DNA of 64,000 nt from Amoebophrya sp. A120 (lineage: Eukaryota; Protista; Dinoflagellata), in contig CAJINV010000009.1 in assembly GCA_905178155.1 (NCBI GenBank), forward strand, positions 2,581,373 to 2,645,372, given 5' to 3'. Below the pieces are notes generated by a model. That model searched no databases, had not been told where the DNA came from, and saw only the letters and a program-made list of their open reading frames with translations. The translations under genes were made by a program, and so were the position numbers. Shown piece after piece: positions 1 through 64,000 of the stretch. Position 1 is the stretch's first letter. Each line of letters opens with the position of its first letter.

Positions 1-3000
1 TCGTCGATCAGAAATCCGAGAGGGCGGTGTCCCCTCCAGAAAACACCCCTCCTCCCCTAATTCGTCCACGAGAACCGAAGTCCTGGTGTCAGAAAAAGGA
101 GTGAAGGTTGACCTAATGGTATACCAATGTCTGATATAAATCCAGAAAACTGAAAAAATATCCAGAAATCCCAGCCGGGGCTGTAAATGAATGTATGAAC
201 GATGAATATGAACGAGACCGATCTTGCTGACGATGCTTTCACTCGAAATATTTATCCCGTAAACATAAAACTCTGTGTCTGTCATGCAAGAACTGGATGG
301 GGATTGGTTTTTTTCTGTGGATACGTTTCTCCCGGCGCAACCTCGTTCCCGTAGATGGAAAGTTTCGTCCAGTGTCGCAGATCCCGCCAGATTATAGCGC
401 TCTCAAGCGTTACACTCTCAACTGTTACATGAATATGTAATGCAAGTAGAATGGCAAAAGTGAAAGGAAAATGAAAAGGTTGCGCCTTTTGCATTACAGA
501 TTTGGAGCAGATTAAAATGCTATCTAGCGCGTCGAGAACTTGTCACGCGAAGCAGCTTCATCATCATCGTCATCATGTAGTGGACACCCGCTCCCAGCGC
601 CACAGGTCAAGGATCCCCTCCCCGGGGGGTGGGCAATTTTGCATGGCAAATTCATGTAACAGCTGAGAATGTAACGTTTGAAAACCCCATACCGATCGCG
701 TTGTGTTTCGGCGCTTCGAGCAGTTCCGCAGTAGATTCCACAATCGGAGTCGCTAGGTGGATCGGTTCAAAAAGCGCTATATTGATTAACGGCGGTGACG
801 CACACCAGTTGCAATCATGCATGACAGATCTTCTCTGTGTATCAATATCATGCATCCTAGGCTAGACAAATTTGAGCAACATCAAAATTTCCCACGCGCA
901 CTTACTGCATGCCAAAACGACCCGTTATTAACGCTAACACTTTTTGGTTCTATGATAAGGTGGATCATCAAGTCAAAATTCCCGATGTTCTTGTCTTCGT
1001 GCAGAAACTGTAAATATCCTGTGCAAAAGTGTCGCATGATTCGTATAAATGTATTACAAATTTCCCCAGCATGAGAAATAAAATTTGTAATGCGAATTTA
1101 GCTTGAGAACAAGATTTGTAATGCATGTTTGCGATTACTACGAGTACGATACCTTTGCACAGCATAGCAAGGTCCGCGCGACAATGGGGGTGGACGGCGC
1201 TAGCGGCTCCAGGATCGCGAGGACCCCGGGCTGGACATCATTTTTTCCAGCCGCATTTTCATCCTTCGAGGAAAAAATCTTCAGCGTTCGCTTCGTGTCC
1301 CGCGCTATCGCCTCTTCCCAGTCTGTATCAAAGGCAAAAATGTCTGGGTCTGGAAGAATGCACGACTTGTCATGCTGCTTTTCCATGACCCATGGGGTCT
1401 GGAATGCAGGACCTAGCATGACAGATTCTGTGCGATCTCTCTCAAGCCTATCCTGCATGAGAAAGTCCCTCCCGACTTGGTCAAAACTGGACGACTTTTG
1501 GATTTTTGCATGCTTCAGATTTAGCATGACAAGGAAGTTGCAATCTTCCAGACCCAGACATTTTTACATTTGATAGTCTGGTCTTTTTCCCAACACCTCC
1601 ATAATCTGGGGCGTACAGGGGAAGGGAAACACCGTGCCAATGTTTTCGTGGGGTTTTTTTCCGTAGTTTTTCGTATTTTCATTCGAGGAAGCTGAAGATC
1701 GAGACCCAGACGTCGCAGTTGCTGATGTGGTGTCGTAATTGCTATCGCTGGAAGATGCTATCACGATGTCGTGGTTTCCCAAAGACGTTACCACACCGTT
1801 GCACACGACAAACCTACCAGTTTCCTCCAGGATGGTTTTTGTAGAAACCCGCTCTTCGGCTTCGTCATGTTGAGCATCGGATTTCAGCGAATCCTCGCCA
1901 GCACCTTCACCTTGTGGTCGCGTATCAATGTGTTTCGCGAAGAACTCCGTTACATTCGGGAAATGGATCACGGACACTGCGCCGCGGGTTGGAGTGCTGC
2001 TGGCGCCGCTCGTCAGCATCTCGGCCTGTTCGTCGTGTCCTTCGGCGGCCGCGGCTCTGTTGTTCGACTCTAATTTGCGCAGAAACCGAGCCCAGTTCTC
2101 CGTGTTTTTCCCGACAACAAACACCAAATCTTGGTTTTTGGTGGTGTTTTGCCTCATCGTTTCTACTTTCGAGGACGCCGTGCTGGGAGAAGTGTTCTTG
2201 GTGCTACTCGTGAGGGTCGTCCACCAAGAGGAAGAGGACTCAGAGTGATCCACTTCTTGTCGTCCTTCATCTTCCCTTATCCACAGTAAATAATTTCCCG
2301 TACGCGCCGTACTGATGCGGTCCCTGCATGACAAAACGAAAACTCGGCTTCCATACTAGTTCTTTGGCATGGCAAGTGTTCCACAACTTCAAATTGGCGA
2401 ACTTTGTCTTGCATGTTGTACATGTACGGGAAATTTGTATTGCGTATCCCAATCGAGAAGTTGTACTTCCCAATTTTCGTTCCACAAGTCCGCGGAGTAC
2501 TCGGTCGCGTTGAAGATTTCCACAAAGCTGGTAACTATGACCCGCTCAGGCACTACAATCTCAAACATATACAATAGTGTCGCGCATGATCCGCATGAGA
2601 AAAATACCGAGCCTCGCGGCTTACGCAACACAAGTTTCGCGGGATTTGAGTGGGGTCTTATGTAGTTCCGGAACTTGTCATGCGCAATCCTGTTGGAGTA
2701 GTTACGCCAGATGTTGCGCAGTGGCATTTTGCAACACAAATTCACGCCTCTCTTGTTCGTAACGTTTGAGATTGTTCGTAAGTAACAGACCTGAGCACGC
2801 CATAGTAATTCCGTGCTTTTTCTCTTCCTGGATTAACGGCACAATGCCCCCGCTCAGGTGCAATTTCGGCTCGATTTTCGTGAAACTCAGCCCATTATCA
2901 AATACAAAAGTGTCTGGGTCTGGAAAAATGCAAGTTTGTCATGCTTGTCTGGCATGACTCGAGAATCTGTGTTGCATAGGCACGAAGCGGCCCTCTTACC

Positions 3001-6000
3001 TGTCATACAAAAGCGCAGTTTGCCATGCGGAATACGTAAGACATGGACGCCAGAAAATTTGCCATGCGTAGCTGCGAATTGCAGTGCGTCTATCATTCAC
3101 TTTTAGCATTACAAGTTTCCAGACCCAGCCATATTTGCCATCCATACCCATCCAAGTTCGAGTAGACCAAGGGGTGGTAGAAGTGCGTCTTTTCCGCTTG
3201 CCTGGCCACCAGCGAGTAGGTGCTCAGGGCCCGGCATGAAATGCAAAAGCATCGCACTCGTATAAATGCATTACAAATTATTTCCTCAGCATGAGAAATA
3301 AAATTTGTAATGCAGAATTACCTTAACAAATTTTTGTAATGCATGATTGCAATACAAGTTGATAACTTTTGCACAGGATACCCGGGTCGGCACGGACTGT
3401 AGGACGGTTTTCGCCGACAGCGTGTGCTGCTTCGATTTCTTGCGGTTATGAATTGCAAAAGTATCGTACTCGTAGTATTGCAATACAAATTAGCTCAGCA
3501 TGACAAAGGGAATTTGCCATGCGGATTCAGCCTAAGAAAGAGATTTGTCATGCATAAATGCAATTACTACGAGTGCGATACTTTTGCACTGGATAGCGGT
3601 CGGAATCCTGCAACTGCCTCGACTCCATTTTCGCTTCCACGTTGGTATGGAAGTGTCAGGATCGAAATCAACAAAGTTGTAATGCATAAAATGCAAGCCA
3701 CAAAGTGCCTGTCTTGCAGAGTAGGCAAGTGAGGCAGATTGTATAGCCTGTGGAGGGGTAGGAATAACGCTGCTGAAGTAGCATGACAAAAGGCGTCTTC
3801 CTTAGCCAAACAGCATGACAGACTGGATTTAGGTTCTAAGTACCCGAATTTGTCATGCTCCATTTGAAAACTGGGCGCCAACTGGTATCCGTTTTATGCA
3901 TCACAAATTACTTATTTCAACTTTGTCGATTTTGACTCTGACGCTTCCATAATTAGTGTTTTTGGTGTAAAACCCCTCGTAGATCAGTCCGTGTGCGAAA
4001 ATCAGGGGCAAAGAGGACTGGGAGAAGGCGGGCAGGAGCTGGGGAAGCAGTTTCTCCTTCAGTTTCGAGAATTGTTCTTTTGTCGATGATGTCGAATCTT
4101 TTTTGATACTGTTCTTGTTCTTCGACAACATCTCTACTGCTGCTCCACCACCAGCTGTTTTTATCGAACTTTGGTAGAAGTCGAAACCACTGTGGATAAA
4201 CCCCGCGTCAAACAGGATTTTCCGACTGCTCGGGAGCCCTGGATTTATTGCGTTGTCGTGGTCCTTGCTTCCTCCACCATGTTCAACATCTACTCCGGTT
4301 GATGCACGACTCCCACTTGCTGCACTTGCCTCCGCGGAAGCTATGGTCTCCATCAGTTTCTTTTCCACCAAACCAAGCATGCCTTTGCCGGCGTACTTGA
4401 GCTGCCTGAAAAGATTCCCCTTCGTGAAGACGGATATGGAAGTGTCAGGATCGAAATCAACAAAATCGAAATGATTTGTAATGCATAAAATCGATACCAG
4501 TTGGAGCCTCAGTTTCCAAGTAGCGCATGACAAATTTCGGGAGCACCAAAATCCACTTTGTCATGCTGTTTGGGCAAAGAGGACTGCTCCTGTCATGCTA
4601 CTCTGGCAGCACATCGTCTTCCCCGAAACAGGCTTGGAATCTGTCTCATTTGCCTGCGCCCCAACACAGACCTTGCGCGCCCTACATTTTATGCATTACA
4701 AGTTCGATTTTGTCGATTTCGATCATCCTGACACATCCATAATGGAGAGGAGCAGCTTAATTTCCTTCAGTTGATTCTTCTGCAAGATAGACTTTTCCAG
4801 CACGCTGTCCCCAATCCGCAGGCGCGGCTGCAATTCGTCCACCTCCTTCTCCATCTTGGCCAATTCCGTCCACAGCTCCCTGCTGTTCATCAAATCGGTG
4901 AGAAAAACACGCAGGATATTGCAAGGAAAGATCCCCCCTCCCCATATTGAAAAGAGCACGCCCTTCCGAAAATTTGTTATGCAGATTCGTGACCACGCAT
5001 CCTGTCTGTCTTGCCAGAAGGCAAAGCCAGAGAGTCCGCCGCGATATGCAGGCGGTTTGTAATGCTGCAAGGCCTAGAGGGCAGAGTTCTGCCATGCTAG
5101 GCCCCTACACCAAAAGGCCCCCCGTTAGGCTTGCGATCTGCGTGCAGTGCTTTTTTGCAAGACAGATGTGATTTGTGTACACAAATCCCGCATCACAGGA
5201 GATTCCCGCAGTTGTAATATGGGGAGGGGGGTGGATTTTTCATTTTGCTAGAGGAAAACGGACCGCTTCGTCGCGGAAAAATTGGAGCGGTAGCCCTTCA
5301 GCGCAGGGGGGAGCGTTGCAATGGCCTCCTCGCTAGTAGTACTCTCCTCGGCAAGACCTTTATTTTTCATCGCGACGCCGGCGCCGCGGGGAGCAGCAGC
5401 ACTTGCACTTGGTGAAGATGTAGAGTTCTTTATTTCCGACGTTTCAGGAACTACGACTGCTGGCTCCGCGTGCAGAATTTCCAGAATGCTCTGCACGTTG
5501 CGGTTCACCGAGAAGAGGTAAAATGTCCCCCGGAACGCAAGGAATTCCAAAATGGTTTTCAATTGATTTTTATCCTGCGCAAAAGTTGTATCCTGCCCGC
5601 ACTAGTTGTAGTATTCTGCATATACAAATTTCATCTTCAGCTTGATGTTGAGATGAAATGGACTTTGTGATGGTGCGTAATAATATGTACGCGTACGCCG
5701 TCGTGACTGCAATTACTACAAGTAGTACCAAGATATGGCTTTTGCAAAAATGCATAGTTTTTGTCGAAGGGGTCAAAGACCATATGAGCTGTGTTGGTCA
5801 CCGAGGACCGCCCGGTGGAGGTCGCCATTGAAGACGTCGATGCAGAAGAATTTCTACCTTTCTTTTTCTTGTTTCTGTTCTTTCGTCGGCTTCTTTTGCT
5901 CCTGTTTCTCTTCCGTCTACCGCGCTTTTTCGAAGCCACAGCCTCTTCGTCCGAGTCGTCATCCTGGTCATCTGAATATGCATTGCAATCGTAATATCGA

Positions 6001-10125: not shown

Positions 10126-12194
10126 GTTAGATATCGGTCACGGAATATGCATTGCAAAAATGTCTGGGTGGTCTGGAAGATTTCGACACTTGTCATGCAC
10201 GCTTTGCATGAGCCATGATGTCTGTGATGGATGCCCTAGCATCACAGACGTTTTTCGGGAATCTTGATGCCTGTTCCGCATGACAAATGCCCTCTCCGCG
10301 TAGCAAAAATCGCATTCCCTTTCGTGCTCATGCAATACAGATATTTTTGGAATCCACATGCAGCATCACAAGTTCAAGTTGCATTCTTCCAGACCCAGAC
10401 ATTTTTACATTTGATACGGAATGTGATACGTCCATTCTACCGTACCACTCGTCTATGGCGTTCTCAACTGCTAATACCTTCTCAACTGTTCTTGCATATT
10501 AAGCTTGTGATGCAAGACCTGGAAAAGTGAAAGGGGGAAGGTTCTTGCACCTGTAGCATTACAAGTTTCGCACAGATTTAGGCGAGGTTAAGGTTATTTA
10601 GGCCTTCGCAAATTTGTTATGCGGACGAGCAGCTTGATCGTGAGGATGCTAATGGTGCTTTTGCGTGACAAATCCATGTAAGAACAGTTGAGAATGTAAC
10701 AGTTGAGAATCCCATATCGTCCACACGCAGCATTTGAGTGTCTCCGTCGTCGTAGGACCAATATGTTCCTATAGAGGGAATGAAGCGAGTGACTTTATTA
10801 TAGGGAGTGCGGGACCAAACGGTTAAAGAAGCTAAAAAAAGCTCACTCGCCGTCCCCTCCCATACAGAATTACGATGGTGTTTATTTGCACTGCAAATAA
10901 AAAAAGAAGGCCTAGTGAACTCAGCTCTACGCAATCAGGTGTGATTCTTGGTAGCTGCTTCGCAATCGCATCTTCACAATAAGAGCTGCACATTATTTGG
11001 GCCTTTCCTTATCATCTTTTGTTATGAATAGAAGGTCGTCTTTTACATCTACTACTAGTAGAGGCCAGCAGCATCTTTCGGGAACGTCACTCGTTTCATG
11101 ATCCCCTCCATTATCAAATGCAAATATGTCTGGGTCTGAAAGAACAGAGATTTTTGTCATGCTGTTTTTGCATGACGCAGAAGGTCTGGCATGGACGCCC
11201 TAGCATGATCACAGGTCTCGAGACGGTTCCGCGATGCCTAATCCGCATGACAAGTCTCCCATTTTGGTTACAGGAAGTGGGCGTCTTTTTCTGCGGCCTA
11301 TGCATGAGAGATTTGTGTGTGTTATGAAATGCGCATTACAAGTTCGAATCCTTCCAGACCTAGACAGATTTGCATTTGATATCCATAGGCTCACCACTCC
11401 ATCGCAACCGCCTTGATCTACCTTTATCCACAGAAAAAAACCCATCCACATCCATTTTTTCTTTTTGCATGACAAACACAAGGAAGGATTTTATGTAGGT
11501 TTTGCATGGCAAATTGGATGCGGATGGGTGTTTTTTCCTGGATAGCCTTATGGCATATCACACGGAAAAGGACAACAAGGAGTACACCAATACGACCAAA
11601 AGCAAAAATATCATCTGCTGAATTGGCGCAGTTTTTTATAAATATCAATTGCTCTTTTCCTCATTTCTTTTTCTTGAGCTTCATCAGGCTCTGGCTCAGC
11701 ATTACAAAACTGCGCGGTACTTTGACGACTATGATCTTCCCTTTTCGGAATTACGAATCTCCCTTCTGCATGGCATGTGTTCGTGCAGTCCGCTCTTATT
11801 GCGGAGCAGCATCACAATGTTTTTTGTGCCACAGAATTTCGAACAATTCATTTTCTTTCTTGCAAGGGTGTACTACTTACCTACTTGTTTTCCCTACGGT
11901 ACCTTCGCACTTAAGCTTGTCGTTAAAGCATTCGTGCCAGTATCCATGAGGCAGGGTGCGCTTGCATGTGACGGCCGCCTTCTTCGTCCCCTCTTCCAGG
12001 AAGGCACTGGGATCGTCCGGCTGGACGAGAACATCATTTTCGCTTTCTTTATCTGCTTCCAGCGAAGCATGCGTAGATTTTTCACTCGCAGGCTGGGTAG
12101 TTGTCGCCCCCGCGTTCATCACGTTTTCCGCAAGTAAAATCAGGCTGGCGGGGGACGAGCCAGCAGCGACTTGCGTCAGCACGAGCTTCCTCAT
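10126..12194 (-). CDS. Possible multi-exon hypothetical gene (gene 2); model unresolved
   Basis: Four introners cluster here; the 3' part splices to GTYWSYDDGDTQMLRVDE|WYGRMDVSHS|VTDI*; upstream exons could not be joined cleanly. Confidence 0.35.
10146..10416. mobile_element. Introner family B
   Basis: Perfect DR CGGAA. Confidence 0.9.
10454..10716. mobile_element. Introner family C
   Basis: Perfect DR TCGTC. Confidence 0.9.
11112..11381. mobile_element. Introner family B
   Basis: Perfect DR TCCAT. Confidence 0.9.
11425..11544. mobile_element. Introner family J
   Basis: TIR TATCCACAGAAAAAAACCCATCCACATCC / GGATGCGGATGGGTGTTTTTTCCTGGATA; DR ACCTT/GCCTT. Confidence 0.85.
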
Positions 12195-21300: not shown

Positions 21301-24300
21301 GGCTGAACAGCATTTAAATCTACTTTTTACACCAAATCTGTAATGCAAAAGGCGCAATCTTCCGCGTTTCACTTTTGCCATTCTGATTCTTGCATCACAA
21401 ACCCATGCAACAGCTGAGAATGGAACAGTTGAGAGCGCCATATTGCACTTGGCTGGCTTGTATGCACTGCAAATACGTCGTCTGGGTCTGGAACAAGAAT
21501 GAAAGGTTTCGCATGGTGCATACCTTGCGAGCTCTAGCATCCCATTTTTTTTGAAAAAGAAGGGTCCGCAAAAATATTGATTATGCCTATAATCCGGCAT
21601 AGATCCACGAGCGCTTCCTTCGTAATATGTCCAAAAGTGGGTAGGGTGCCTTTTTGTGGTGCTGTTAAGAGCAATACAGATTCAGATTTTGGCGAGGACA
21701 CTCAGACGTCGCATGACATTAAACTCGGACTCTTATCTTCCAGACCCAATCCTCATATTCGCGGTTGATAGCTCGCCGACCATCGGTGAGTCTGGGTTTT
21801 TATCCTGTGCAGAAGTATCGTACTCGTAGTAATCGCAATCATTGCATTACAAATCTACATCCCAAGGCGAATCAGCATGACAAATTCCGTTTCTCATGCT
21901 TAGCTAATTTGTAATGCGATTCATACTAGTACGATACTTTTGCAATGCATAATTTTCCACTGGGTTTTCCAACAGCCAGAGTTTCTATGCCAGTGCACAA
22001 CTCGAACTTCACCCCGTCCGCAACGTTTGCGATGCAAACTTACAAGAATCCGCCGAGCCAGCATTGCCTTGCAGTTTAATAGAACTCCTGACTTCGACTT
22101 GCATCACATGCTCCACCAGCACTTCCAACCATACTAGATTCCGTGTCTTGATGATTTGTCATGCATACCCTGCTACATTTCTCATTCTTTTGTGATAAGT
22201 AGTTTCTGATGCTGTTCCTGCTTGTCCTGCTATACAAACTTCGAGGGAGCAGGGAGTAGTTGCTCTCGTGCGCTCTCATAGTTTCCAGGTTCCGTCAGCC
22301 AACTGACGCTGCGTCATGTCGGAGGGAAACTGTTTCACCTAGCGGTAGTGAGTGATGTCGTGTAGTATGTTTTGTCATTACAACGTAATACAACGTGTTA
22401 CAACGTAAAACCCGCATGCGCATGACAGGTGTCTGTGTCTCGGTCTCCTTGTCTTGACGTTGCATGACAAACGAAACCATTTTACCAATTTCCACAACGG
22501 CACCCGGCCGATCTCCTTCCAGGCAGATTTCACATCGTGGTCTTTGCACACACGATCCAAGACCGCCTCCTCTAACTCGTACTTGCAAAAGTAGTTCAAA
22601 ATCGCCTTCTTCAGACTCTGCATGCACTCTTCCTTCGGCCGCGGCGGCTGCTTCGGGAGCTGCAGCGATTCGTTCTTTGTCCTGTGCAAAAGCGCATCGC
22701 ACGAGCACGTGGAATTTTTTTTTGGGGGCCAGGTATGCTCGCGCATGACAGTAGATCTACTCCTGCTTTGCCTTCTTCCTTCGTCTTCAATATGGCTACA
22801 TCTACATCAACGACAAAATTTATTATTTCCCCTTGGAAAAAATTGATGTTGGCCATGCAATTGCAAGAATTCCTACCAGGACTGCGATAGTGCTTTTGCA
22901 ATGCATAATCTTACCCGGCGTCGCAGACAGACTCATGTTCATGGAAGAATTGTTCAGAGCTTCGGAGGTGGAGGTACGCGACAAATTGCTGCTGTTGTAA
23001 AACGGAATCTGCGGGGACTCACCTTTTTTATTTTTGTTATAATTCGATCATAGTCTTCGATTCTCCTTCATCAGATCATGCTGAAATTACTTCGCGATCG
23101 CGCTACAACTTCTAGGGTATCAAAATTCTATACCGGTCAAGTTCACAATCCGCTGTTGGTTCATGGTCGTCAGATCCGGCGACCCAAACGGCGCCCGGTT
23201 ATGGAAGTGGCAGGATTGAAATCGTCAAGGTTGAAATAATGATTTGTCATGCAAAGAATGCAGCCGACAAAGTGCCTGTCTTGCAGAGTAGGCAAGTGAC
23301 GCAGATTGTAAGCCTGTTGAGGCGGGGTAGCAACTGAGCTGCTAAAATAGCATGACAGGAGCAGTCTTCTTTGCCGAAACAGCATGACAAACTGGATTTC
23401 GGCTCTACCCAAATTTGTCATGCGCCACCTGGAAACTGGGTTACAACTGGCATCCATTTTATGCATGACAAAGCAGTTCAACTTTGTCGATTTCAAACGA
23501 CCTGACGCTTCCATACCGGTGCGACCGTCCGTACGGGTGGGCCGTGTATCCTGAGTAAAAACGTACCCACGCCAGAGTTGTAATGCAGATTTGCAAAGAC
23601 AGGAAGACTTGTAATGCGCATCCCCATGAGAGCCATTTTCAGTCGTGTTTTGGAATTTGTGATGCTGTGAACAGGATGAGCAGATGAATCTGTGACGCAG
23701 CTGCACTTGCTAACCTGCACTACACTGCATAAGTGCAACTTGTCATGCGTGACTCACAAAACTCCTAGGCTTGTGTTGCAAAATCCCCATCCTGACTCTG
23801 GTGTGGGTACGTTTTTACTCAGGATACCGTGTCCAGGGTGGTCACACCGGGATCGGTGAAGGTACGCTGCAGGAGTGTTTTCGTCTTCTTGTTGTGCATT
23901 GTGATCTGCTGGCAGCTCTTACCGATGGATTCCTCGAACAAGTTGTTGCCGTGCAGAAAGGATCCGCTCGCGTTGGGATTGGAGGGTCCTCCAGCAACGT
24001 AGGTTCCGGTGTTCAAGTTTCCGCTCGACGCTTTTAGCAGATTGTTCTTCTCGGCGTGGTTAAAACTGGAATACACTGAGTTGTTGCTCACGCCAGCCCC
24101 ATATGCGATTGCAAAACCAAAAGTATCGCGATTGCAGTCCTGCATATACAAATCTTGATTTTCTTATTTTTCGTAAACGTAAAGGAGCATTACAAAAAAT
24201 TCCATTGCTTATGCTCAGGAAATTTGGAATGCGAATACTACAAATAATCGTACGATAATTTATTTGCAATGCATACCCCAGCACTGGCAACGACCTCTGG

Positions 24301-43090: not shown

Positions 43091-43133
43091 TCGTGCACAG
43101 GTGTCGAACAATTCTTCTTTTTCAGCGTGTTAC

Positions 43134-45501: not shown

Positions 45502-48500
45502 TCACTCCACCAAAAGCCCTCCACTTTCGTAGAAGCCGCCGTGTTGGTGTAGTTGTTCCCTGCTGCCATACTCATAGTATTCCCCTCCTTCCTCGTCACT
45601 GTAGTTTACCATTTCCGGAGGCAGAACCCCCACAGGATGCTGCTGGGACGCCGTGATGAACTCGCGCTGGTGTTTTTCGGGGTAGGAGAAGTAGACATGA
45701 TTATCGTCTCCCTCACGATCACCTCCACAGCTTCCGACGTAGTTGCTCGCGTGGTCCTGCATTTTTATGTTCTCCAGCTGCTCCCGATACTGCAGATTTT
45801 TTCCAAACACTTGCTCCTTGTTCAAAAACCACTTCTCCAATTCTTCCTGTTCAAATTTTTCCACAAATTGCTCGAACGGTAAAAACCCGCCGCCCACACG
45901 GAAGACCGGCTTCTCGTTGTTGATCTGCACGTTGACCTGCCGTTTTCCAAACAAGTAAACTCCCTGCTGGACGCGGAAAAACGGGACCGCCGGCTCGAAG
46001 CCCTGGATCCACTTCGCGAGCGTTTGGTCGATAATGTCGTGCGGGTGGGGTGTGTATTTGGTCGAGACGAGGTGTTGGACCTAATAAGTAGTTTTTTGAT
46101 GTTCGTAGGCAAAGAAAAGGGAAGGAGAAGACTTCTGCGGCAGGGGGTATCTATCGACGATGAAACCATAAACAAAGTCCAAAACAACTATATGCAATCT
46201 CAGACAACAAAGGATGGCGGCACGTATCAATCTGCACCTTCGCCATGCTCCGCTGCAATTTGTCTTCCAAATCCGCACACTTCAAGCCGATTTCACTGCA
46301 ATTCCCGTCCTTCTCCCGCAATTCGACAGCGAATTTCTTCCTATCGCACTCCAACTCCGTCTGAAGTTCGTCGTTTTTCGCATTTGAGTCCCTGAGTTTC
46401 TTCACTAATTCGTCCGAGTAGCTCTGCGAAAATTGCAACTGGTTCTTCAAGTCGATGAGCTTTTTCTGCAAGTCGGGGAGTTGCTGCTTCTTCACCACCT
46501 CGTTGAACTCCGATTCTAGTTTTTCCAAATTAATGTTCGTTTCTCTTTATGCATCGCAAAAATATCGTGCCTAGCTACTGCTACTCGTAGTAATTGCAAT
46601 CATGCATGACAAATGCAACTCTCTACCTGGACTAGCATGACAAATTGCTTTTTTGTCCTTCAGAACATCTGTAATGCGTATGCGGTTCCTGCCTAGTACG
46701 ATACCTTTGCGCTGCATACTCTTAATCTCAGTAGTTCCGTATCTTTCTCCTTCGCGGTTTTCTCTGTCTCCTTCGCCTTTTTCTCGTTCTCTTCCTGCTT
46801 CTCAACCGTCTTCGCCAGGAAGGACTTGTGCTCGGTGAGCAGGAGGTCAAATTGCTGTTTTAGCAAGCTGTTCTCCGCTTCCAATTCCGTTGTAGCGTTC
46901 TCAAATGTTACATTCTCAACTCTTACATGATTTCTTCTTGCCATGCAAAATTACAAGCCGAATCGACGTGATCAGGCGGCTTCGCAAGACAAATTCTAGG
47001 AAAGCCAATAAACAGGCTGAGAATGTCATTCTCATAAAACACGTCACAGATCATTATGATCTGTGCCGAATCTGTCATGCGAGACGTGCAAGGTCACCCC
47101 CTTCACTTTTGCCATTCCTGCATCACAAATTTATGTAAAAGTTTAGAATGTAACTACAGTTGAGAGCGCCATATCCGCTACGTACTCGTTCGAAACCTTG
47201 TTCCACTGCGATTGGTATCCTGTGCAAAAGTATCGCACTCGGACTCGTGTAAATGCAAGTCTTGCATTACAAATCTTTTTCTTGAGGTAAATCCGCATCA
47301 CAAATTTTATTTCTCATGCTGCGAAAATTTGCAATGCATTTATACGAATACGATACTTTTGCACAGGATAATTGGTGCTGGTCCAGGGCGGAGGCTGGTA
47401 AATCCAAAAATTATAATTGTGATCGTCCAATAGATACAACACTCGCGGCGGCATCGGGATAGACTTGTACAGAGGTACGCATGAGAAAAGCTATAGCAAA
47501 AGTAGATCATCCTAAGTTGTAAATACTTAAATTACTCATTTCCTCCTTCGCCCTGCCCGCGTCTAAACCCCTTTCCCTCTGTCTATACTGCTCGTTATCT
47601 GCTTCCAGTTTCCTTATCGACAGCTCCAGGATAGACTGCTGTTTCTCCAAGGCGAGAATCGATTCCTCTTTCGCATCCACTTCTTCCGCCTTCCCCGCTA
47701 ACAGTCCCCGCAACTTCTCCACCTCCAAAACCGTGTTCGCTGCAATGGTTCGCTGCGCTTCTTTTTCCGCTTCCAGCTCTAAATTGCGCTGCCGCGTGAA
47801 GTGGAGCTGTTGGTACAAGTTTTTTAGGCTTTTTCTACCTTGAAGTTGGTATTACTATTAGCACCGTGGCAACGTAGGATAAAAACAAACATTGCAAAAA
47901 GTGCAGGAAGAACATCAGAGGCACAGAGGTCATTGTACTTCTCGCATTACAGTATCCATGCTTACTGTGCTGTCGTGCTCGTTCCTACTGTTTTTCAATC
48001 AACGTAGATACCTCGCTCTCCACATCCGTCAGTTCCTTTTTCGCCGCCTCGCTTTTTATTTTTTCCTCTTTCAGCAGATGTTTCAACTCGAGCAAGTTTG
48101 TGTTAAAGTTCTGCTTTTCCAGGAAAAATTCCTTCTCCTTCAGCGAAATCTCGTCCAGCAGATTCTGATTTTTCCCCACCAGCTCGCCGCACTTTATCAC
48201 AGGAAAAAGTGTTGACGTATGACGGAATTTGTCATGCAGTAATGCATCACAAAGCGCGTTCAAGTTTGTCATGCATAGAATGCATACTAGGCAGAATTTG
48301 TCATGCATATTTGCAATATAACGTTAACACTTTTTTGTTTGATACACTTCTCGTTTGTTTCATCCACGAACTTCCGGAAACTTATGATCTTCTTCTGGTT
48401 CTCCTCATTTTCGAGTCTCATCTGCTTCACTTGGTTGTCATTCGTGAAGGACTTGTGAGTTTTGTTCTCCTCCTGGAGAATCCGGATCTTCTCCTCTAAT

Positions 48501-51240
48501 CCGGGGATGGTTTCCGTTAGCAGATTATTCTCTTGCTCCTTCATATGCATTGCAAAAGTATTGCGGTAGCAGGAATTGCATGACAAATTTTCTCCAGAAC
48601 GAATCTGCAACTTGTCATGCTTTCGGAGGTAGCAAATTCCATTTGTCATGCATTGCTGCAAATACTGCGAGCGCAACACTTTTACAATGCATACTTCATC
48701 GTTTGGACCACGTTCTCCTCCAGGTCTTTGATCACGAAATTTTTCTCCAGATATGGGGTTCTCAAACGTTACGCTCTCAACTGTTACATGAATTTGTGAT
48801 GCAAGAACAGCGAAAGTGAAAGGAAGCATCTATTCAGCTTTTGCATTACAGATTTGGCACAGACCCAGATGCTGTTTAGCCCTTCGAGAATTTGTCATGC
48901 GCAGCCGCTTGGCCGTGTGGTTGCTTATGGTATTTTTGCATGACAAATCCATGCAACAGTTGAGAACGTAACGTTTGAGAACGTCATACCAGAATGGTTT
49001 TCGTTTGGGACTCGATGATGACTTTGCTGTTACTGGTCTCATATGCATTGCAAAAGTATCGTACAACGTAGAAATTGCATGACAAATTTTTGTAGAAGCA
49101 AAAATGCAATTTGTCATGCTGTTTTACCTTCGGAAGGAGGTTTGTCATGCATGATTGGAATTAGTACGAGTGCGATACTTTTGCGCAGGATATCTCAAAG
49201 TCGAGCTGTTGGTTCAAGTCCTGAATCTGCTGCACTAAATCTTGGTTTTGATACCCCGCTTCGAGAAGAGCCGCCCGGTGTTTCTGCACCTCGGCCTCTA
49301 GCTGCTGGATTGCGGCTTCGCTTTGCTGTTCTGACGCCAGTATGGTCGTAGACTTAACATTTGCCCCCGTCGTGATTGACTTCTGCGACTGCGACCTCTG
49401 CACGAAGTAGGAGCTGCTGTTGATGTTGTGTTTCGGTGTGGCGTTCCTCGAGACACCGTATCAAATGTAAAAATGTCTGGGTCTGGAAGAATGCAACTTG
49501 TGATGCGTGTTGCGGATCATACAAAAATCTGTGTTGCATGACTTGCAAAAGGTCCCCACTTCTGGCCATGTTGAGAGGGCATTTCTCATGCAGAATAGGC
49601 ATCACCAAGGGGCTGCAGAACCTGTGATGCTAGGCCCTGCATTCCAGACCTGGCGGAGCTTGAAAAACTGCATGACAAATCTCGGAATCTTCCAGACCCA
49701 GACATTTTTGCATTTGATACACCGGCAGCTACACCTAAACCTGCCCTCGACTTCGCTGCATGGTTACTCGGACTCGCGTTTCTGGAAGCGTTTCTTGATG
49801 ATGATGGTATAGCGTTTGCTGTGCCAGATGGTTTGCCGGTCGTCGTCCCCGGAAGTGGGAGGAGCTTTGTCGGCTTTATTTGCAGATGCTGTGCCTGTGC
49901 CCCGCCCGAATAGGCTTTCGTGACCGCGTTTGCCTCGACATCATCCATCGCAGAAAGATACTGGTCGTAGGACGGCGAGCTGACCGGATTCGTGTCTTTG
50001 GACACCAAACTCGAGGCGGGTACGTCTATCGCAAGAAAAAACTTTTTCACTGTGAACTTGTGATGCAGAAAATGCATCAGTGAACTCTTTGTCTTGCTAC
50101 ACATGCAAGACAAGCGATTTTCAGCGATGTTTTCCCTTAGGATCCTTGCATGGCAAGTTTTCTTTGTAATGTGTAGCGAACTTGTAAATGCAAAACAACT
50201 TGCAACATCCTTACAGTGAAACAGTTTTTTCTTACGATAACGTCCGTGCTGACTTTACTCGCAGCGATGGTGGAAGCAATTTTGGCGGAGAGCGAGGTTG
50301 TAGAAGTTGCGGCACCATTTGATGTTCTAGCAGTTGACGAGGAGAATGTTCCACGACCAGATGATCCACCGCCGCCAGTGGTCGTTACTTTTTCCCGGAA
50401 ATGTTTCCTCAATTCCTCCAAGGTTCGTTCAAAACTTGTCGCGTTGATAGAAGAAGTAGTACTTGTACTACTCCCCGGCGCCGTCCCAATGTTGTTGCCA
50501 ACAAGATTTCCTGCGCTAAACCCTATAACCGTGTTTCTGTATTCCGAAATGTAGTCCCTCGGGAGATATTGGATGACCAATTGCAGCGATCTGGATGAAC
50601 AAGTACTAGACGCTCCTCCACCTTTTGACGTTGAAAATGCTCCACCACCACCCGATGTTGAGTTCGTTGTTTCTAACTGGTAATCGACTCTCCAAATATC
50701 CACCGGCTTGTCCGTGATGCAGCGCAGCGGAAGGGTCAAATGCCCAATCACTGCGCCGTCATTGTCTTCTGTGCTTTGGTCGTCGTGCACGGTGAATTTC
50801 AAAACATCCTGCTCTGGGTTGTGGATGCGGAACTGCAGGATTTTGGTGCTTGGGATCAACGTCGACTGAATCATATCAAATGCAAAAGCATCGTACCCGT
50901 ACTAATCGCGGATACGCATGACAAATCTGGTTCTCAAGGCAAATCAGCATGACAAATTCCATTTTCCATTCGGGGGAAATTTGTCTTCACGAGATTTATG
51001 CATATACTAGGTAGTCCGATACCTTTGCAATGCATAAATCACGTCGCCGAGCAACTGAGCACGGACGTACGGGACCAGTGCGGGAGAGTTGTGTGTGGTG
51101 CTGAAGGAGCCTGCTGTAGCTCGGTTGGCACAAGCGGTCGTATTCAGTTTGGAGGAGGAACTGGATGGAGTCGACGCGTTGTGACCAGCAACTTCGGTCT
51201 TCAACTCCTCCACGTGGAGGAAGAGGTAGCAGGAGGTCAT
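45502..51240 (-). CDS. C2 domain + long coiled coil + C-terminal GAS2/GAR domain protein (gene 7)
   Basis: C2-like PYVRAQL...LQFRIHNPEQDVLKFTVHD...VIGHLTLPL; GAS2 signature DIIDQTLAKWI...FFRVQQGVYLFGKRQVNVQINNEKPVFRVGGGFLPFEQFVEK; GT-AG intron at about 46081-46237. Confidence 0.8.
46548..46718. mobile_element. Introner family A
   Basis: Perfect DR CTCTT. Confidence 0.85.
46891..47173. mobile_element. Introner family C
   Basis: DR TCCGT/TCCGC. Confidence 0.85.
47216..47370. mobile_element. Introner family A
   Basis: Near-perfect TIR; perfect DR ATTGG. Confidence 0.9.
48195..48344. mobile_element. Introner family G
   Basis: Perfect DR CACTT. Confidence 0.85.
48544..48693. mobile_element. 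Introner family A
   Basis: Perfect DR CTTCA. Confidence 0.9.
48752..48988. mobile_element. Introner family C
   Basis: Perfect DR CCAGA. Confidence 0.9.
49042..49192. mobile_element. Introner family A
   Basis: Perfect DR TCTCA. Confidence 0.9.
49459..49719. mobile_element. Introner family B
   Basis: Perfect DR CACCG. Confidence 0.9.
50027..50239. mobile_element. Introner family H
   Basis: Perfect DR ACGTC. Confidence 0.9.
50874..51036. mobile_element. Introner family A
   Basis: Perfect DR AATCA; splits the C2 domain (GDVI|QSTL). Confidence 0.9.
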
Positions 51241-51519
51241 GGCTTTGTGCTCTGGGTTCTTGTACGGTTGCGCCAATGTTGTGCCGGCTTGCGCAACGTG
51301 TGTGCGAGAAAATCTTTCTGTCTGCTGTTCTTGTTTCTCTCTGGTTGGTTGCAACGTAAGTAAAAGTGCTTAGTGCTTGCCGGTGTAAAAGCTCCTCTTC
51401 CTTCATTCCCCCTCTTCGTTCTCGCTCTCGTGGCGCTAAGTAGTACAACTACAACTGCAGGACGAAATGAAACTCCACGACAACGCTTCATCGGGTGGAA
51501 CAGAACGCGACGCCTGCAC

Positions 51520-54090: not shown

Positions 54091-54844
54091 GGTTCAAGGC
54101 TGGCCAGATGGATAAACAATGCCAACTGCAAAGCTGTTGCAGTTGTACAGTCGGTTTCTACAACTCTTTGCGTTTGCAAAAGCAAAAGCATAAACCTCTC
54201 AAAACAAGCAACGTTCAGGCGAATACTCTTCATCAACTGATGTCTTTCAGCTTTCACTTCTGGTTTTCAAAGAATCTTGTCTAGGTCTTCTTGTTCTTGC
54301 GCACTCACTGCACAAAAAAGAGAGCTTGAGCTTTGACCCGAAAGGGCCTACGCACAAAAACCGCAAGAAACCTTGAATGCAGGCATTTTTTCTATTGCTA
54401 CTTCCTAGAAGTTCTGTCTTCATCCGCTCACCTTCAGATAAAATCGAGAAAAACGCTTCTTGAATCTGAAAGTCTACACGTATAAATGGTATGTCCACCT
54501 CTAGTCCTCTACTGTGTCTTTGTCATACAATACCACAATCGATGCATTTTTCCCCTAGTGTCGCTATTAAGACGCGTTGTATATCATCATCATACATGGA
54601 TGGGCTGCTGCTGCACGTTAACCTTCATTGCAAAAGCTTCGCTTATAATCGGTTCAAAAAAATAAAAAACGATTTATTTCCCCACTGACGTCCCCACTGA
54701 CAAATCGATGTTTTACGTCTTTAATTACCTCAGCCTCACTAACATCTCAGGTTGAAAACTAAAGTGCATGCTCGAGCTCGACCAGCAAGGTGCAGCTGCG
54801 CCCGATATTTATAACAATCACAAATGACTTGATCGGCTATCCAT

Positions 54845-57313
54845 CTATTCCCGCACTGGCTCTTGCGCCTGTAGTTGTTCCCAATCTACATCCTGCTCAC
54901 CACCGTCCGTCTGTTTTTCCAAACGTAGCGCCTCCCTCTTCGCCCGCTTTCTTTCTCGCTGCAATGCCCTCTTCTTCTGGCGGGCGGGACTTGGCACGTG
55001 GAATGGGCCGCCACTGTGTTGTTGATCATGCCCATGTACTGCTCCAGCGGTAGCATCTCTTTCCCGCGCGGATGATGTAGTGTTGCTGTCAGCTCCTGAC
55101 GACGCAGAATTCGTTGCGCTCCGTCCAACATCATGATCGCGACCTTCGGCTCCAACAACATCGAAATCCTGAGAAGTCGGAGTCCCTTGCTCGTCAAACA
55201 GTAGCTCCTCCGCACTTGCAGTAGAGACTAGTGCCTCTGCTGCAGTTGATGCTGACGAAAAGGAGCCTGCAGACCCAGACGACGTAGTAGAGATTCTTCG
55301 GATCATCGTTTGGCTCTCGGTTTGCCTGTGCGTGCTTGCGCTCGCTTCACATTCGGGAGGAGTCCTTTGCGCGTCATCTTCCTTGCTGCTGTTTCTAGTG
55401 CGAGACCTCCACGCGAAGTCGTTGCGTGGTTTGTCGCGTTTAATACTACTTGTTCTCTTTGATGACAACCTCGACGGCAAGACTACACCGGAGGAAGTAC
55501 TAGAAGCCGGACTAGTTGTGCCACGTTGCTTTGTGATATTTACATTTTCGTTTGCGGCAGCGGGGCGACCCATGTAAGCATGTGTTTCTAGTTCCTGACC
55601 TTGCGCCATCACCCACCGATTTTCGAATGATTGCGGCCACCAGAGGCGCCCTCCATCGGTTGTGTGGTCTAGTGCTGTTGTTTCACTAGGAACTACCGCC
55701 CAATCTCCCGGCGCCGCCGCGCAGGACATCATATCGGCGGACTCGCAGTAAAACACCATCGGCACGGCGGTGGCCATCCCAAGATTTGCTGGATCCCCGA
55801 CGCAGATATAGGGTGTCGAAGATGATGAACAAAGGGCTGCGAAGTGATGCTGATGCATTTCAGATGCAACTTGATTTGCATCTTGCTGCCACTGATGACT
55901 ACGGTAGGGAAAACTGTCCCCACTACCCCGGTTTTCCCCAAAGACAATTTTTTTTTTTCGATCCAATTGTAAGCAGGGCGGGCCCTTCGCAAGCGACCTG
56001 CGCCGCGAATGGCCAGACCGAAGCCCGCTCCCCCAGGTGTGTTGCTGGACTCAAAGACACTGCACGCCTTGCCCGGCTTTTTGGGGCGCAAGCAGCTCGG
56101 GGCCCGCGAGGCAGCGCCCTGGGCAAGGCGCCCATGCCAGACCCGCCCCCCGGCCACCTAAGGCTGAACGCAATGCCCCTTGCCGCGGACCTGTCTTCTC
56201 CGCTTGAGGCTGGCCGGCACCGTTTCCCTGAGTGCATGTTCGGACACGCTGGCGAGAAAAAAAACGTATGCTGGGGATTTCGGCCCTAAGCAGCTATCTA
56301 CGCACTTTCGGCCACCAAAACGAGCACCAGAAACCTCCCGAAAAGGTACGCATGCACGACCCCCAGGGAAACGGTGAGGCCGGAGCCTCAGAAGTTGGGC
56401 GCGGCCAGTGTGGCGGGGCCGCGTTGCAGTAGCCCACGCGCGGATGGGGCCGAAGTAGCTACACACATCCACAAAGCTTGCTGCCCCGTCAGCTCATGCG
56501 CCGACTTTTGCGCGCCGCTATCCCGCTTGCTCCATTGCATACGTAACAGCCTCAGAAAGTATCCGTGAAGAAGATCCACTAGCGGACACTATCCGGGCGG
56601 GCTGCGCGGCCGGTGGCCGTGTTGTTGCATCAGTTCATAAAAAAATTTTTGATTTGGGGAAAACCGGGGTAGTGGGGACAGTTTTCTCTAACGTAATGAC
56701 CATGAAAATTCTCTCCTGTAACTGGCGCCGACGTGGTCGCTGGGTCGTGTGTGCTGTAGTTGTTGTGCCAGCAATACGCATTCGGATTCGCCCAATTGTC
56801 GTCGCTCAACATCCACCCGATGTGTTGTTGACCACTTCTTTGGCCATCGTCAGTCCTCGGCGATGTTGTTGCATCATCCGGCGCACTAAGCCCTCCAGCA
56901 GCCGGCTCATCGTCCTGCTCATCCTCCGAGACGAAGTCTGCCCAGCGACTTGTTCTCGTCGCCCCGTGTGAAGCTGCGCCGGTAGGCGATGAATGTTCTT
57001 GCACCGTGCCGACATCTGCCGACACGAGCTCTTCGGCTGCACCATCAGGCTCTTGTGCGGCGTGATCCTGGTCTGTGGTGAGAACCGGATGAAAAGAATC
57101 CGCGGAAATATCTTCTGTCGTTGACGTTCTTAATCGTATGCCAGCACAGATGCTGACGCTGCTTATCAGACAAGCGAAGGAAAAAATCTCCCTGCAGTGC
57201 TGCATTCTGGATGATAGGCTCCTGATGGTACTAGTTGTAGACCCCGGGCGTGTAGTTCTTGCTGTTGTCCTTGTCATGGTGTCTCGGCGTGATGAAACAG
57301 GATTATACTTCAT
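54845..57313 (-). CDS. Two-exon hypothetical protein with a hydrophobic N-terminal segment (gene 8)
   Basis: ORFs 56630-57367 and 54845-55966 join in frame (GENFHGH|QWQQDAN) on removal of the 796-bp element plus ATGAC. Confidence 0.7.
55900..56695. mobile_element. 796-bp TIR element / long introner with a GC-rich interior
   Basis: 43-bp TIR TACG(G/T)TAG(G/A)GAAAACTGTCCCCACTACCCCGGTTTTCCCCAAA with 2 mismatches; perfect DR ATGAC. Confidence 0.9.
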
Positions 57314-61300: not shown

Positions 61301-64000
61301 CAATTAAGCTGCTTCGCATGACAAATATCCGAAGGGCTAAGCAGCATCTAAATCTGTGGCAAATCTGTAATGCAAAATGCGCGATCTTTCCCCTTTCACT
61401 GTCGCCATCTTGCATTGCAAATTCATCTTCATGTAGCAGCTGAGAGTGTGACAGTTGAGAACGCCATAGCTGCGGGAAAACTTGGGAGTGCGGGACGGTT
61501 TGGAGGAGGAAGCCGTTTTCTGATATGGATGTGTCAGGATCGAAATCGTCAAAGTCTACATAATTTGTAATGCATAAAATGCATGACGCGAGGCGCGTGC
61601 ATTGCAGAGCAGGCAAGTGAGGCCGATTGTAAGCCTGCTTGGGGCTAGAGCTCGAGCTGCTAAAGTAGCATGAGAAAATCAGTCTTCTTTGCCTAAGCAG
61701 CATGACAAACTGGATTTAGGGACCGCCAAAATTTGTCATACGCCATTTGGAAACTGGGTTCCAACTGGCATCCATCTATATGCATGACAAACTAGTATTT
61801 CAACTTTGACGATTTCGATCCTGACACTCTCATATCTGAGGCGGAGTTGACCAAAAACAGCGTGAATTTCGCTGCGCAGATGTTGCTGCAGAGGATCCAT
61901 TCTAGGGACAAGTGAAATGGATTGTCCGGGTGGTAGTGGGAGTCGAGCTGCAGTTGGATCCACTCGTTTGTAGTAGACGCTGGCTGTTTATGCATTGCAA
62001 ATATGTGTGGGTCTGGAAGCATGCGAACTTGTGATGCGCATTTCACACCACAGATAAATCTCTCATGCATAGGCAGCAAAAGGCGCCCGCTTCCTGTCAC
62101 CAAAATGGGGGATTTGTCATACGGATTAAGCAGTGCGGAAGCTTCTCGAAATCTGTGATGCTAGGGCTTCCATGACAGACATTTTGTGTCATGCAAAAAC
62201 AGCATGACAAAAATCTGCACTCTTCCAGACCCAGACACTTTTGCATTTAATACTGTTTTCGTGGGACTGGTCGGGTTGATGCTGGAACACCGTTGTTCGC
62301 CGCGCTTGCCGCAGCAAAAGCACCACGCTGATGCGTAGTTCCAGTCGCCGCACCACCGGGAACATATCGACCGGAGGCGGCGCCACCAGTGCTCGAATGT
62401 AAAGACGCCGTGGGGGAAGTTTGCCCCTGAAGATTTGGGTCTCCAACACCCCCAGCTGCACGATGTTGATCCCTAGAAGTTGTTGTAGTTGTCCCTTGAG
62501 GATGACCTCCTCCCTTTGCAGCAGTAGAACTCACCTGGATATTGTGCCACGTTCGCATCCACCGAACCGGAATCTTCGCAGTCTGTCTTGTAATCTTCGA
62601 AGATTTCGTACTGTAGCCGATTCTGTATATCGTTTGTGGTTTGCCCTTCTCAAATTCTTCCTCCTCCTCATCGCTCCTCAGCACGGTCGTGCTGCCAATC
62701 GTGCCTTCCGTGCCCGTCGTCGCTGACCGGAGACGGTTCTCGGTTAGGGGAGGGTGGGTCGGAGGAACTATTGTTCCAGAAGATCGTACACCTCCTGCGG
62801 CGGACGAGTCTTGCTTGTGCTGTTCCTGGTGATCGAAAGCTTCATCATCTTCCGCAGTAAAATGAAAAATCGCTTCATCCTCATCATACACCTTCGGCAC
62901 AGAAATCGGCAACGAATACCGACTTTCCTCTTCCCTCAAAGCCGGATTCGACGCGGCGAGGATTGACGGTTTCTTCTTCGTATGCAGTGCAAAAGTATCG
63001 CGCTCGTACTACTTAACTGCACTAATGCATTAGATATTCCGCATCGCAAATCTAATCTGTAACGCTGAGCCAAGTTGCATTGCACGTTTATACTAGTACG
63101 ATACTTTTGCAATTCATACTTCGGCGCATTTGCGTACAAATAGTGCTCGACTTGCTTCTTCCACGAATCAAACTTCCGGATCAACCGCTTCCTCCTTTTG
63201 TACTCTTGAACGGCCGCGGGAATCGACTTCGTCTGGGGGTAGTTGCTGTGGAGAGAGTAGGCGTCGTCGACGAGTTTAGTAGAATTTTGATGCGTCTTGA
63301 TGTTCTGGTGGCCTTCTTGCTCTTGAAATTTATTGGTATTTTTACCACCCCCGTCAGCTCCACCTGATGTTGTTGACACAGACGCTGCGAACGGCCACTC
63401 CCCCACGGTTAACTTCTTTTTCACTTTTCGCTGCTCCAGCTTGTCTTTTTCGTTTATCGGGACAAGGACAAAAACAATCGACCGGAGCACCGAGCGGAGT
63501 CGATACCAGGGAAAATTCTGCTCGGTGGCTTTCTTACTGGCAAGGGACAAGCTGGAGGCAACAGCACGCGACGTAGCACCCTCTCCAAGTAGGTCGCCGT
63601 CACTGCCGACGAAATTCTTTTCATACAAAAACGCCGGCGTCGCTGCTGGCATATGGGGTTCTCAAACGTTCCATTCTCAACTGTTGCATGAATTTGTCAT
63701 GCAAAAATACCATTATCATCCACAAGACCAAGCCGCCTCGCATGACAAATTTGCGAAGGGCTACTAGGCAGCACCTAAATCTGTTCGGGATTTGTGATGC
63801 TACAGGCGCAACCTTCCCCCTTTCACTTTTGCCATTCTTGCATCACAAATCCATGTAATCGGTGAGAATGTAACAGTTGAGAACGCCATATGGCAAAGGG
63901 TGTGCTTGGGACACGATTTGGTCCACTGTGTTCCACGGGATGACGTCCGGTTGGCAGAAAGTCAAATGCAAATGTGTCTGGGTCTGGAAAGTTGGAACTT
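58377..64000 (-). CDS. Probable DEPDC5/IML1-like (GATOR1) protein, C-terminal part; 5' end outside the window (gene 9)
   Basis: Spliced EWIQLQLDSHYHPDNPFHLSLEWILCSNICAAKFTLFLVNSASE|NGFLLQTVP and GWVFMEP|QSGLFFVTV..HVYWN resemble the DEPDC5/Iml1 C-terminal domain (from memory). Confidence 0.55.
58802..58975. mobile_element. Introner family A
   Basis: Perfect DR CGGCT. Confidence 0.85.
59485..59737. mobile_element. Introner family B (in frame, stop-free)
   Basis: Perfect DR CGTGT. Confidence 0.85.
60741..60980. mobile_element. Introner family C
   Basis: Perfect DR CCGGA. Confidence 0.9.
61244..61468. mobile_element. Introner family C
   Basis: Perfect DR GCTGC. Confidence 0.9.
61524..61834. 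mobile_element. Introner family D
   Basis: Perfect DR TCTGA. Confidence 0.9.
61989..62252. mobile_element. Introner family B
   Basis: Perfect DR CTGTT. Confidence 0.9.
62981..63118. mobile_element. Introner family A
   Basis: Perfect DR CTTCG. Confidence 0.9.
63652..63890. mobile_element. Introner family C
   Basis: Perfect DR TGGCA. Confidence 0.9.
63961..64000. mobile_element. Introner family B, left end only (cut by the window edge)
   Basis: TCAAATGCAAATGTGTCTGGGTCTGGAA. Confidence 0.75.

Follow-up and report, generated by a model that had tools for sequence, protein, structure and literature searches.

A shared internal motif, paired at a three-turn spacing, as a putative protein-docking site in the introners of Amoebophrya sp. 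A120

The short inverted-repeat elements in a 64,000-bp stretch of DNA from the dinoflagellate Amoebophrya sp. A120 (GenBank assembly GCA_905178155.1, contig CAJINV010000009.1, positions 2,581,373 to 2,645,372; the window) share an internal motif, GCAT(G/T/C)ACAAA, across families whose terminal inverted repeats (TIRs) differ. The elements, judged by TIR grammar and family sizes, match the published A120 introners (PMC7789003) and are thus already known; what appears to be new is the motif they share and its three-turn spacing. As far as the sequences allow a judgement, the motif is probably the docking site of one protein that is shared by all families and needed for their mobilization. It is possible, and tentatively preferred, that this protein is the DNA-binding part of a shared transposase; a host architectural cofactor that acts like a recombination enhancer is a somewhat less likely candidate. 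Amoebophrya contains tens of thousands of non-canonical introners. The occurrence of one motif with a fixed helical spacing in families whose ends differ implies a single trans-acting factor common to them, and, if true, the proposed explanation accounts for the movement of many families with different inner TIRs without a reported transposase.

The window contains 81 elements of 120–796 bp within positions 393..63890 (Table 1). Their ends are TAT..ATA, in one case TAC..GTA. A search for TAT..ATA inverted repeats that was blind to the motif gave 58 candidates, four of which (2728, 15613, 19573 and 44736) were dropped as low-complexity or mis-paired. Another 27 elements were added by homology, by the terminal profile and by inspection of leftover motif clusters; the final list is therefore partly motif-guided. 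The ends follow the pattern TAT-N7-AAA (terminal profile from 54 seeds), with the variant CAA/CAG at terminal positions 11–13 in Fam5–7, and the inner TIR positions 15–30 are family-specific. The elements are inserted in both orientations in minus-strand genes. They are flanked by a 5-bp target-site duplication (TSD) without base preference, apart from a mild G+C lean at the targets; its two copies agree in 5/5 positions in 48 elements, in 4/5 in 26 and in at most 3/5 in seven.

Both strands of the window contain 109 exact copies of the motif (65 with G, 28 with T and 16 with C at the variable position), compared to a mean of 0.85 and a maximum of 4 in the shuffled window. The elements occupy 18,724 bp (29% of the window) and hold 106 of these copies. 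The other three (positions 11699, 22462 and 32875) are scattered over the remaining 45,276 bp, so that the density is about 85-fold higher within elements, and the 8,197 bp of exon that transcript contigs support contain no exact copy. The 58 motif-blind candidates by themselves hold 82 of the 109 copies in 13,058 bp. The enrichment is real, and an initial annotation of the window, which had described the motif as common to most families and rare in exons and intergenic DNA and had proposed an enrichment check, is confirmed on these points. The full degenerate motif reads GCAT(G>T>C)ACA(A>G)(A>G)T. With a position weight matrix (PWM) trained on the window elements and a site threshold of 8 bits, 78 of the 81 elements contain at least one site, the median is four sites per element, and 64 elements have sites in both orientations. 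The three canonical GT-AG introns that served as controls contain 0, 1 and 0 PWM sites. The earlier statement that the motif occurs several times per element is therefore valid for its degenerate form but not for the exact 10-mer, which is absent from 22 elements, occurs once in 29 and at least twice in 30; all three examples named there have two, two and three exact copies in both orientations. In most copies the first site lies 29–50 bp from each end and points inward or outward depending on the family.

Additional copies were collected with one terminal pattern from metagenome contigs of a related assembly, which gave 149 loci (617 kb non-redundant) from 160 of about 600 stretches. This set is biased to Fam0 (191 members) because of the terminal search pattern, and the identity of its elements to window copies reaches 94%. 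A detection blind to the motif found 385 elements in the 617 kb, against 0 false positives in shuffled DNA (300 kb); 374 of the 385 end with TAT..ATA and 381 carry at least one site. Clustering of locus and window copies yielded 15 families with two or more members and 33 singletons. When the motif was masked, 60 of 66 family pairs showed no homology above shuffles, whereas six (Fam4-6, 3-9, 2-9, 4-10, 1-10 and 3-7) aligned better than all 100 shuffles; Fam4 and Fam6 have a common interior under different TIRs. The families are thus not all "otherwise unrelated", as had been stated, although most pairs are. Furthermore, many ends of one family are joined to the interior of another, and the long elements L015:290-840, L019:505-1608, L054:571-1051 and L070:9769-10799 look like known families carrying inserts. 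These inserts and mixed ends suggest nesting and module swapping.

The motif is more strongly conserved than its surroundings. Its core has an identity of 0.81–0.95, compared to 0.69–0.87 for the other interior columns, and is higher in 12/12 families; the difference is significant (p<0.001) in 10 families and not significant in Fam8 and Fam10. For this test families of more than 60 members were subsampled to 60, and sites were defined on the consensus, which somewhat favours conserved columns. In disjoint nearest-neighbour pairs, binned by increasing distance, the ratio of motif to other substitutions is 0.53, 0.46, 0.36 and 0.40, and the corresponding TIR ratios are 0.50, 0.54, 0.44 and 0.44. 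Across copies, the motif diverges about half as fast as other columns (slope 0.50, confidence interval (CI) 0.33–0.70). A comparison by TSD age (80 versus 329 copies) was underpowered, with a difference of 0.013 in the other columns and a CI that spans 0. The ratio of motif to other divergence is 0.28–0.32 whether or not the frame stays open across the junction; the closed class comprises 12 copies only.

The sites are also arranged in a defined way. The consensuses of 11 of 12 families contain 23 pairs of sites 31–33 bp apart, mostly in the same orientation, compared to a mean of 5.2 and a maximum of 14 in 5,000 position shuffles (p=0.0002). This distance corresponds to three turns of B-DNA. 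The peak is seen again in the loci alone, and also in the window when each family is represented by a single copy (6.8 versus 1.4 families). The spacer sequences differ between families, and the spacers take fewer length changes per bp than the DNA elsewhere (0.38 versus 0.62 %/bp, p=0.0025, for overlapping intervals). For example, the consensus spacing of the six sites of Fam3, all in a single orientation in the copy 23547–23826, is approximately 31/49/33/48/31.

Transcript evidence for the removal of the elements comes from contigs of four runs (X1-X4) of one sample, which were taken as RNA by an automatic guess that is supported by the skipping of three GT-AG introns. Of 23 joints, 15 were examined, and 12 of these skip the element and one TSD copy at non-GT-AG junctions; and two further skips, of the Fam3 copies 23547–23826 and 24709–24996, follow from the coordinates of transcript contig pieces. 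Thirteen of the 14 TIR-type introns with transcript joints carry 2–6 sites. The motif-free 796-bp element 55900–56695, however, is removed exactly in contigs of all four runs. The motif is therefore not strictly needed for removal, and of the two functions that the initial annotation had offered for a common binding site, a subterminal transposase site and an excision-factor site, the mobilization branch is favoured. The raw-read runs X9 and X10 contained no junctions and matched only parts of paralogous copies at 90–99% identity. Reverse-transcriptase template switching is an unlikely origin of the joints, because one contig of 3,852 nt lacks all elements across 44998–51037 and because frames become open in 188 of 326 cases when the element and 5 nt are taken out, compared to 108–118 for out-of-frame removals. 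The joints may alternatively originate from stage-specific DNA excision.

A plausible mechanism would be as follows. Two protein units, separated by three turns, would occupy the same face of the helix and would help to bring together the TAT-N7-AAA ends of a 110–320-bp element; an integrase-type cut and join of these ends would then leave the 5-bp duplication. A host cofactor would bend or loop elements that are too short to join their ends unaided, and the absence of sites in the long 796-bp element, a single case, fits this idea. A working analogy is the Fis-bound enhancer of the Hin system, a bacterial serine invertase, in which the helical spacing of the two protein sites is fixed (approximately 48 bp), while neither their orientation nor their distance from the recombining ends matters for their action. 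Removal from RNA would depend on the terminal stem together with the direct repeats and not on the motif, and the inner TIR (positions 15–28) would be free in sequence between families while co-varying from left to right. Each element would comprise two parts of different likely function, TAT-N7-AAA and the motif pairs for mobility, and the stem of the inner TIR and the direct repeats for splicing. The motif pair is a defined bait for a mobilizing or excising factor and a signature for an autonomous element and for decayed introners.

Several observations weigh against a role in mobilization. No transposase domain was detected by Pfam in 20 open reading frames (ORFs) of the window or in the best 80 of 159 long locus ORFs by length, which contained host domains only. 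Likewise, none of the TIR/TSD elements of 420–15,000 bp in the window and the 617 kb proved to be an autonomous element with a coding frame, so that the transposase-encoding elements which the initial annotation had proposed to look for did not turn up; the long candidates have the appearance of nested insertions or chimeras. Farhat et al. 2021 (PMC7789003) report no transposase in A120 and rule out general transposase-mediated mobilization. The ratio of 0.53 in the closest pairs (<8% divergence) also fits selection after insertion for a role in the host. The 31–33-bp interval was picked after viewing the data, and other spacings are weak or not significant (18–19 bp, p=0.013; 13–14, 48–52 and 80–84 bp, p>=0.10). 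Because some families are related, their effective number is lower, and the common spacing may be partly due to inheritance. Finally, the motif-free element that is spliced is one case, with an unusually long TIR.

Other explanations of the motif were weighed against the same data. If it were an RNA signal or a hairpin element of non-spliceosomal splicing, the two orientations found in 64 elements would let either strand present a copy, and part of the folding data would fit: folding strength comes mostly from the element ends, but the interiors of Fam0, Fam4 and Fam6, trimmed by 35 nt per end, still fold at z of about -3 to -4. The trimmed interiors of the other six families tested reach only -0.4 to -2.2. 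Moreover, opposite motif copies show no excess of double changes (242 versus 295 expected; close pairs 59 versus 55), whereas the positive control, TIR positions 15–28, shows 131 versus 65 expected, 83 of them complementary; these positions were chosen because positions 4–10 failed in the two largest families. Internal hairpins, which the motif had been said to supply, are thus possible in sequence but lack compensatory change. Elements lie equally often in sense (166) and antisense (168) to the coding strand (89/423 unassigned), and families with sites in one orientation insert both ways (Fam3, with six same-direction sites, 11:7; Fam8 6:2). As a motif-free element is spliced and Rfam has 0 matches in the window, a function in RNA is very unlikely. 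The extra conservation, the fixed 31–33-bp spacing and the strand independence favour a double-stranded DNA site, in line with the common protein-binding site proposed at the outset. Shared ancestry alone is the least probable explanation considered here. According to it, the families go back to a small number of modules rich in the motif, which may have arisen by duplication of part of a terminus, and nothing binds now; the six aligning family pairs and the end of Fam1, which itself scores 12 bits as a motif, are in agreement with this. Such an origin was one of the refutations foreseen by the initial annotation, and some families can indeed be aligned with the motif masked, yet the columns of the motif change only a third to half as fast as their neighbours at every depth, the spacing is kept while the spacer sequence varies, and the 60 remaining pairs have no other homology above shuffles. 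Shared ancestry is largely refuted by the extra conservation, unless the neighbouring columns are hypermutable or poorly aligned.

The strongest rival is a DNA-bound removal factor. A host DNA-binding protein on paired sites would recruit machinery that removes the element from nascent RNA, or the polymerase would skip the element; the intron would be defined on DNA and could have either orientation. The evidence at the DNA level (spacing, strand and covariation) fits this equally well, as do the twofold slower divergence of the motif, its conservation in the closest pairs, which tracks that of the TIR, and the sites present in nearly all TIR-type introns with joints. U1 small nuclear RNA (snRNA), moreover, was not found in Amoebophrya according to PMC7789003. 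We nevertheless consider it rather unlikely, given the exact removal of the site-free element in four runs of one sample, the equal motif divergence with and without an open frame (closed class n=12), and 13 motif matches in 146 kb of coding frames versus about 6 expected, hence no avoidance. It is comparably unlikely, if slightly more far-fetched, that one protein binds the 31–33-bp pairs, loops the elements and serves both mobilization and orientation-blind removal during transcription. Introns would then be marked on DNA, a transposon-end-binding protein would have turned into an intron-definition factor, and hundreds of families without a common inner TIR would be mobilized by it. Alternatively, the sites might position chromatin (a nucleosome or a dinoflagellate nucleoprotein) or recruit silencing, with no direct role in jumping or splicing. 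The helical-phase spacing and a weak 10.1-bp phasing of family lengths are compatible with this, but neither the position of the first site 29–50 bp from the ends nor the reason why multiplying lineages would keep a silencing mark is explained, and we regard it as highly improbable.

The preferred reading, a docking site used in mobilization, can be compared with known systems. Like the A120 introners of PMC7789003, the elements have inverted repeats consisting of TAT, seven variable bases and at least three A, direct repeats (3–5 nt in that paper), and non-canonical removal from transcripts; here, a clean 5-bp duplication lies outside the TIR, in contrast to a 3–5-nt repeat of variable position. 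The family lengths of Gozashti et al. 2025 (PMC12130899), approximately 106, 149, 160, 209, 234, 252-260, 278, 305-321 and 808 bp, match those found here, and fam38 of that dataset is described with '5-bp TSD, TA/TA termini'. No internal shared motif is mentioned in the available text of PMC7789003, and its supplement has 0 matches for GCATGAC or GTCATGC, although the logos in its Fig. 3 and Figs S19–S25 could show one. Similarly, none is described in the available parts of PMC12130899, where the 10-mer has 0 matches in 12 of 14 supplements. A whole-word literature search for the motif, with subscription papers and theses outside its scope, returned only unrelated papers.

The subterminal repeats (STRs) of hAT transposons such as Hermes (PMC10368747), which are bound by BED domains, resemble the motif in being short, conserved, near both ends and in both orientations; they are also asymmetric between the ends, and in some families one copy overlaps the TIR. 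The Hermes sites, however, are irregularly placed 4-mers of one element, whereas a 10–11-mer with a fixed 31–33-bp spacing is present here in at least 12 families with different inner TIRs. The 5-bp TSD is shared with hAT5 (PMC12730594), but no hAT-type transposase was detected in 100 ORFs scanned (approximately 0.7 Mb in all). IS3EU/GingerRoot elements (PMC10045372, PMC6839031) share the TA..TA termini and the absence of a base-specific target, and fungal IS3EU termini are TAYGG..CCRTA (PMC12730594). In contrast, their TSD is usually 6 bp, whereas the transcripts here drop the element plus 5 nt; GingerRoot TIRs measure 100–150 bp instead of about 30 bp; subterminal repeats are not mentioned in the available parts of these papers, and no integrase-like frame was found here among the frames scanned. 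Because ends and TSD length lie between both groups, the elements were filed under neither IS3EU/GingerRoot nor hAT5. Euglenid nonconventional introns (PMC11282704) likewise have a TIR stem that joins the intron ends and TSD-like junction repeats, an unknown removal machinery and a proposed origin from miniature inverted-repeat transposable elements; they differ in their terminal consensus and, in the parts available, show no shared internal motif. A viral source was rejected: two TIR patterns matched 0 IMG/VR contigs, and the 12 contigs matched by the motif-pair pattern were all AT-rich and unrelated to the elements.

Table 1. Elements, representative copies and control introns in the window.
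Feature	Position	Strand	Sites and remarks
Elements, set 1	393-691, 760-957, 1015-1166, 1326-1575, 2278-2446, 2536-2804, 2896-3146, 3235-3380, 3447-3595, 3646-3951		
Elements, set 2	4435-4741, 4917-5250, 5977-6147, 6200-6487, 7127-7398, 7637-7821, 8380-8529, 10146-10416, 10454-10716, 11112-11381		
Elements, set 3	11425-11544, 18409-18657, 18773-18914, 20405-20719, 20966-21150, 21195-21442, 21461-21770, 21801-21951, 21986-22280, 23200-23515		
Elements, set 4	23547-23826, 24102-24275, 24346-24640, 24709-24996, 25603-25749, 26245-26498, 26742-26886, 27316-27476, 28083-28346, 28437-28697		
Elements, set 5	28800-29006, 29237-29496, 30887-31147, 32169-32411, 32478-32756, 33026-33334, 33431-33701, 33706-33935, 33987-34194, 34247-34525		
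Elements, set 6	34674-34833, 35298-35453, 35682-35825, 35884-36049, 36218-36390, 36462-36745, 36832-36985, 37036-37188, 37263-37572, 38699-38850		
Elements, set 7	38905-39146, 39526-39734, 46548-46718, 46891-47173, 47216-47370, 48195-48344, 48544-48693, 48752-48988, 49042-49192, 49459-49719		
Elements, set 8	50027-50239, 50874-51036, 55900-56695, 58802-58975, 59485-59737, 60741-60980, 61244-61468, 61524-61834, 61989-62252, 62981-63118, 63652-63890		
Fam0 (260-bp family)	49459..49719		6 PWM sites; TIR with GTCTGG twice; transcript drops element + one TSD copy
Fam1 (150-bp family)	3447..3595		exact sites 3498 (+), 3544 (-); TSD GCGGT
Fam1	26742..26886		exact sites 26811 (+), 26826 (-)
Fam2 (210-bp family)	50027..50239		4 PWM sites, no exact 10-mer; transcript drops element + one TSD copy
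Fam3 (280-bp family)	23547..23826		transcript contig piece ends at boundary 23827
Fam3, opposite-orientation copy	24709..24996		five sites, all +; absent from same transcript contig as 23547..23826, by record coordinates
Fam4 (320-bp family)	4917..5250		interior homologous to Fam6, TIR different
Fam5 (240-bp family)	48752..48988		4 PWM sites; TATGGCGTTCTCAA-type ends; transcript drops element + one TSD copy
Fam6 (310-bp family)	61524..61834		exact sites 61564 (-), 61700 (+), 61782 (+)
Fam8 (110-120-bp family, smallest)	11425..11544		consensus with one 32-bp pair
Fam10 (150-170-bp family)	48195..48344		4 exact sites; GTTAAC twice in TIR; removed from transcript
Motif-free element	55900..56695		796 bp, TAC..GTA; TSD ATGAC, 64-bp TIR; best score 5.6 bits
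Example motif pair	21844..21884	+	two same-orientation sites 31 bp apart; 9 such exact window pairs, 0 expected
Canonical GT-AG intron, control	46081..46237	-	0 sites
Canonical GT-AG intron, control	47395..47535	-	1 PWM site, no exact 10-mer
Canonical GT-AG intron, control	47807..48011	-	0 sites

The ends of the elements have further regularities. In seven of 12 families the inner TIR contains a tandem 5–6-bp unit from position 16–19 (GTCTGG, CCCCA and GTTAAC, each twice, and others; e.g. window 1342–1353), which may serve as another binding site specific to the family; in Fam5 and Fam6 its place is taken by a repeat with a 15-bp period. End positions 4–10 switch among few words (CAAATGC, GCATTGC, CCTGTGC and GAACTGC), and in Fam0 and Fam1 the left and right words assort independently, so that the outer stem is often mismatched. 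The modal lengths of the families, 109–322 bp, show a weak phasing of about 10.1 bp (R 0.61; p=0.048 with the period scan taken into account); a periodicity of 10–11 bp within families was not seen, except for two Fam0 modes, 252 and 262.

The TIR of the 796-bp element has a GTCCCCAC box in common with Fam3. In its length, TA..TA ends and 5-bp TSD the element resembles fam38 or fam196 (approximately 810 bp) of PMC12130899. It has no relative in loci L001-L149, its frames have no Pfam match, and a 120-aa frame within it has no homologue. Degenerate sites without clear paired ends are clustered at 22300–22910, 18050–18300 and 20760–20890; these clusters are probably decayed introners.

Two GC-rich (55–70%) intergenic stretches, approximately 41580–43110 and 51480–54100, have little or no transcript cover, no exact motif copy, no Pfam match and no match in the loci. 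The latter contains 61-bp inverted arms at 51698–51758 and 52438–52498, and both stretches are possibly other transposons. The gene at 44998–51600 on the minus strand has at least 13 introns (10 introners and three GT-AG introns), and its product contains a C2-like domain (below the Pfam cut-off), coiled-coil-like stretches and a C-terminal GAS2 domain.

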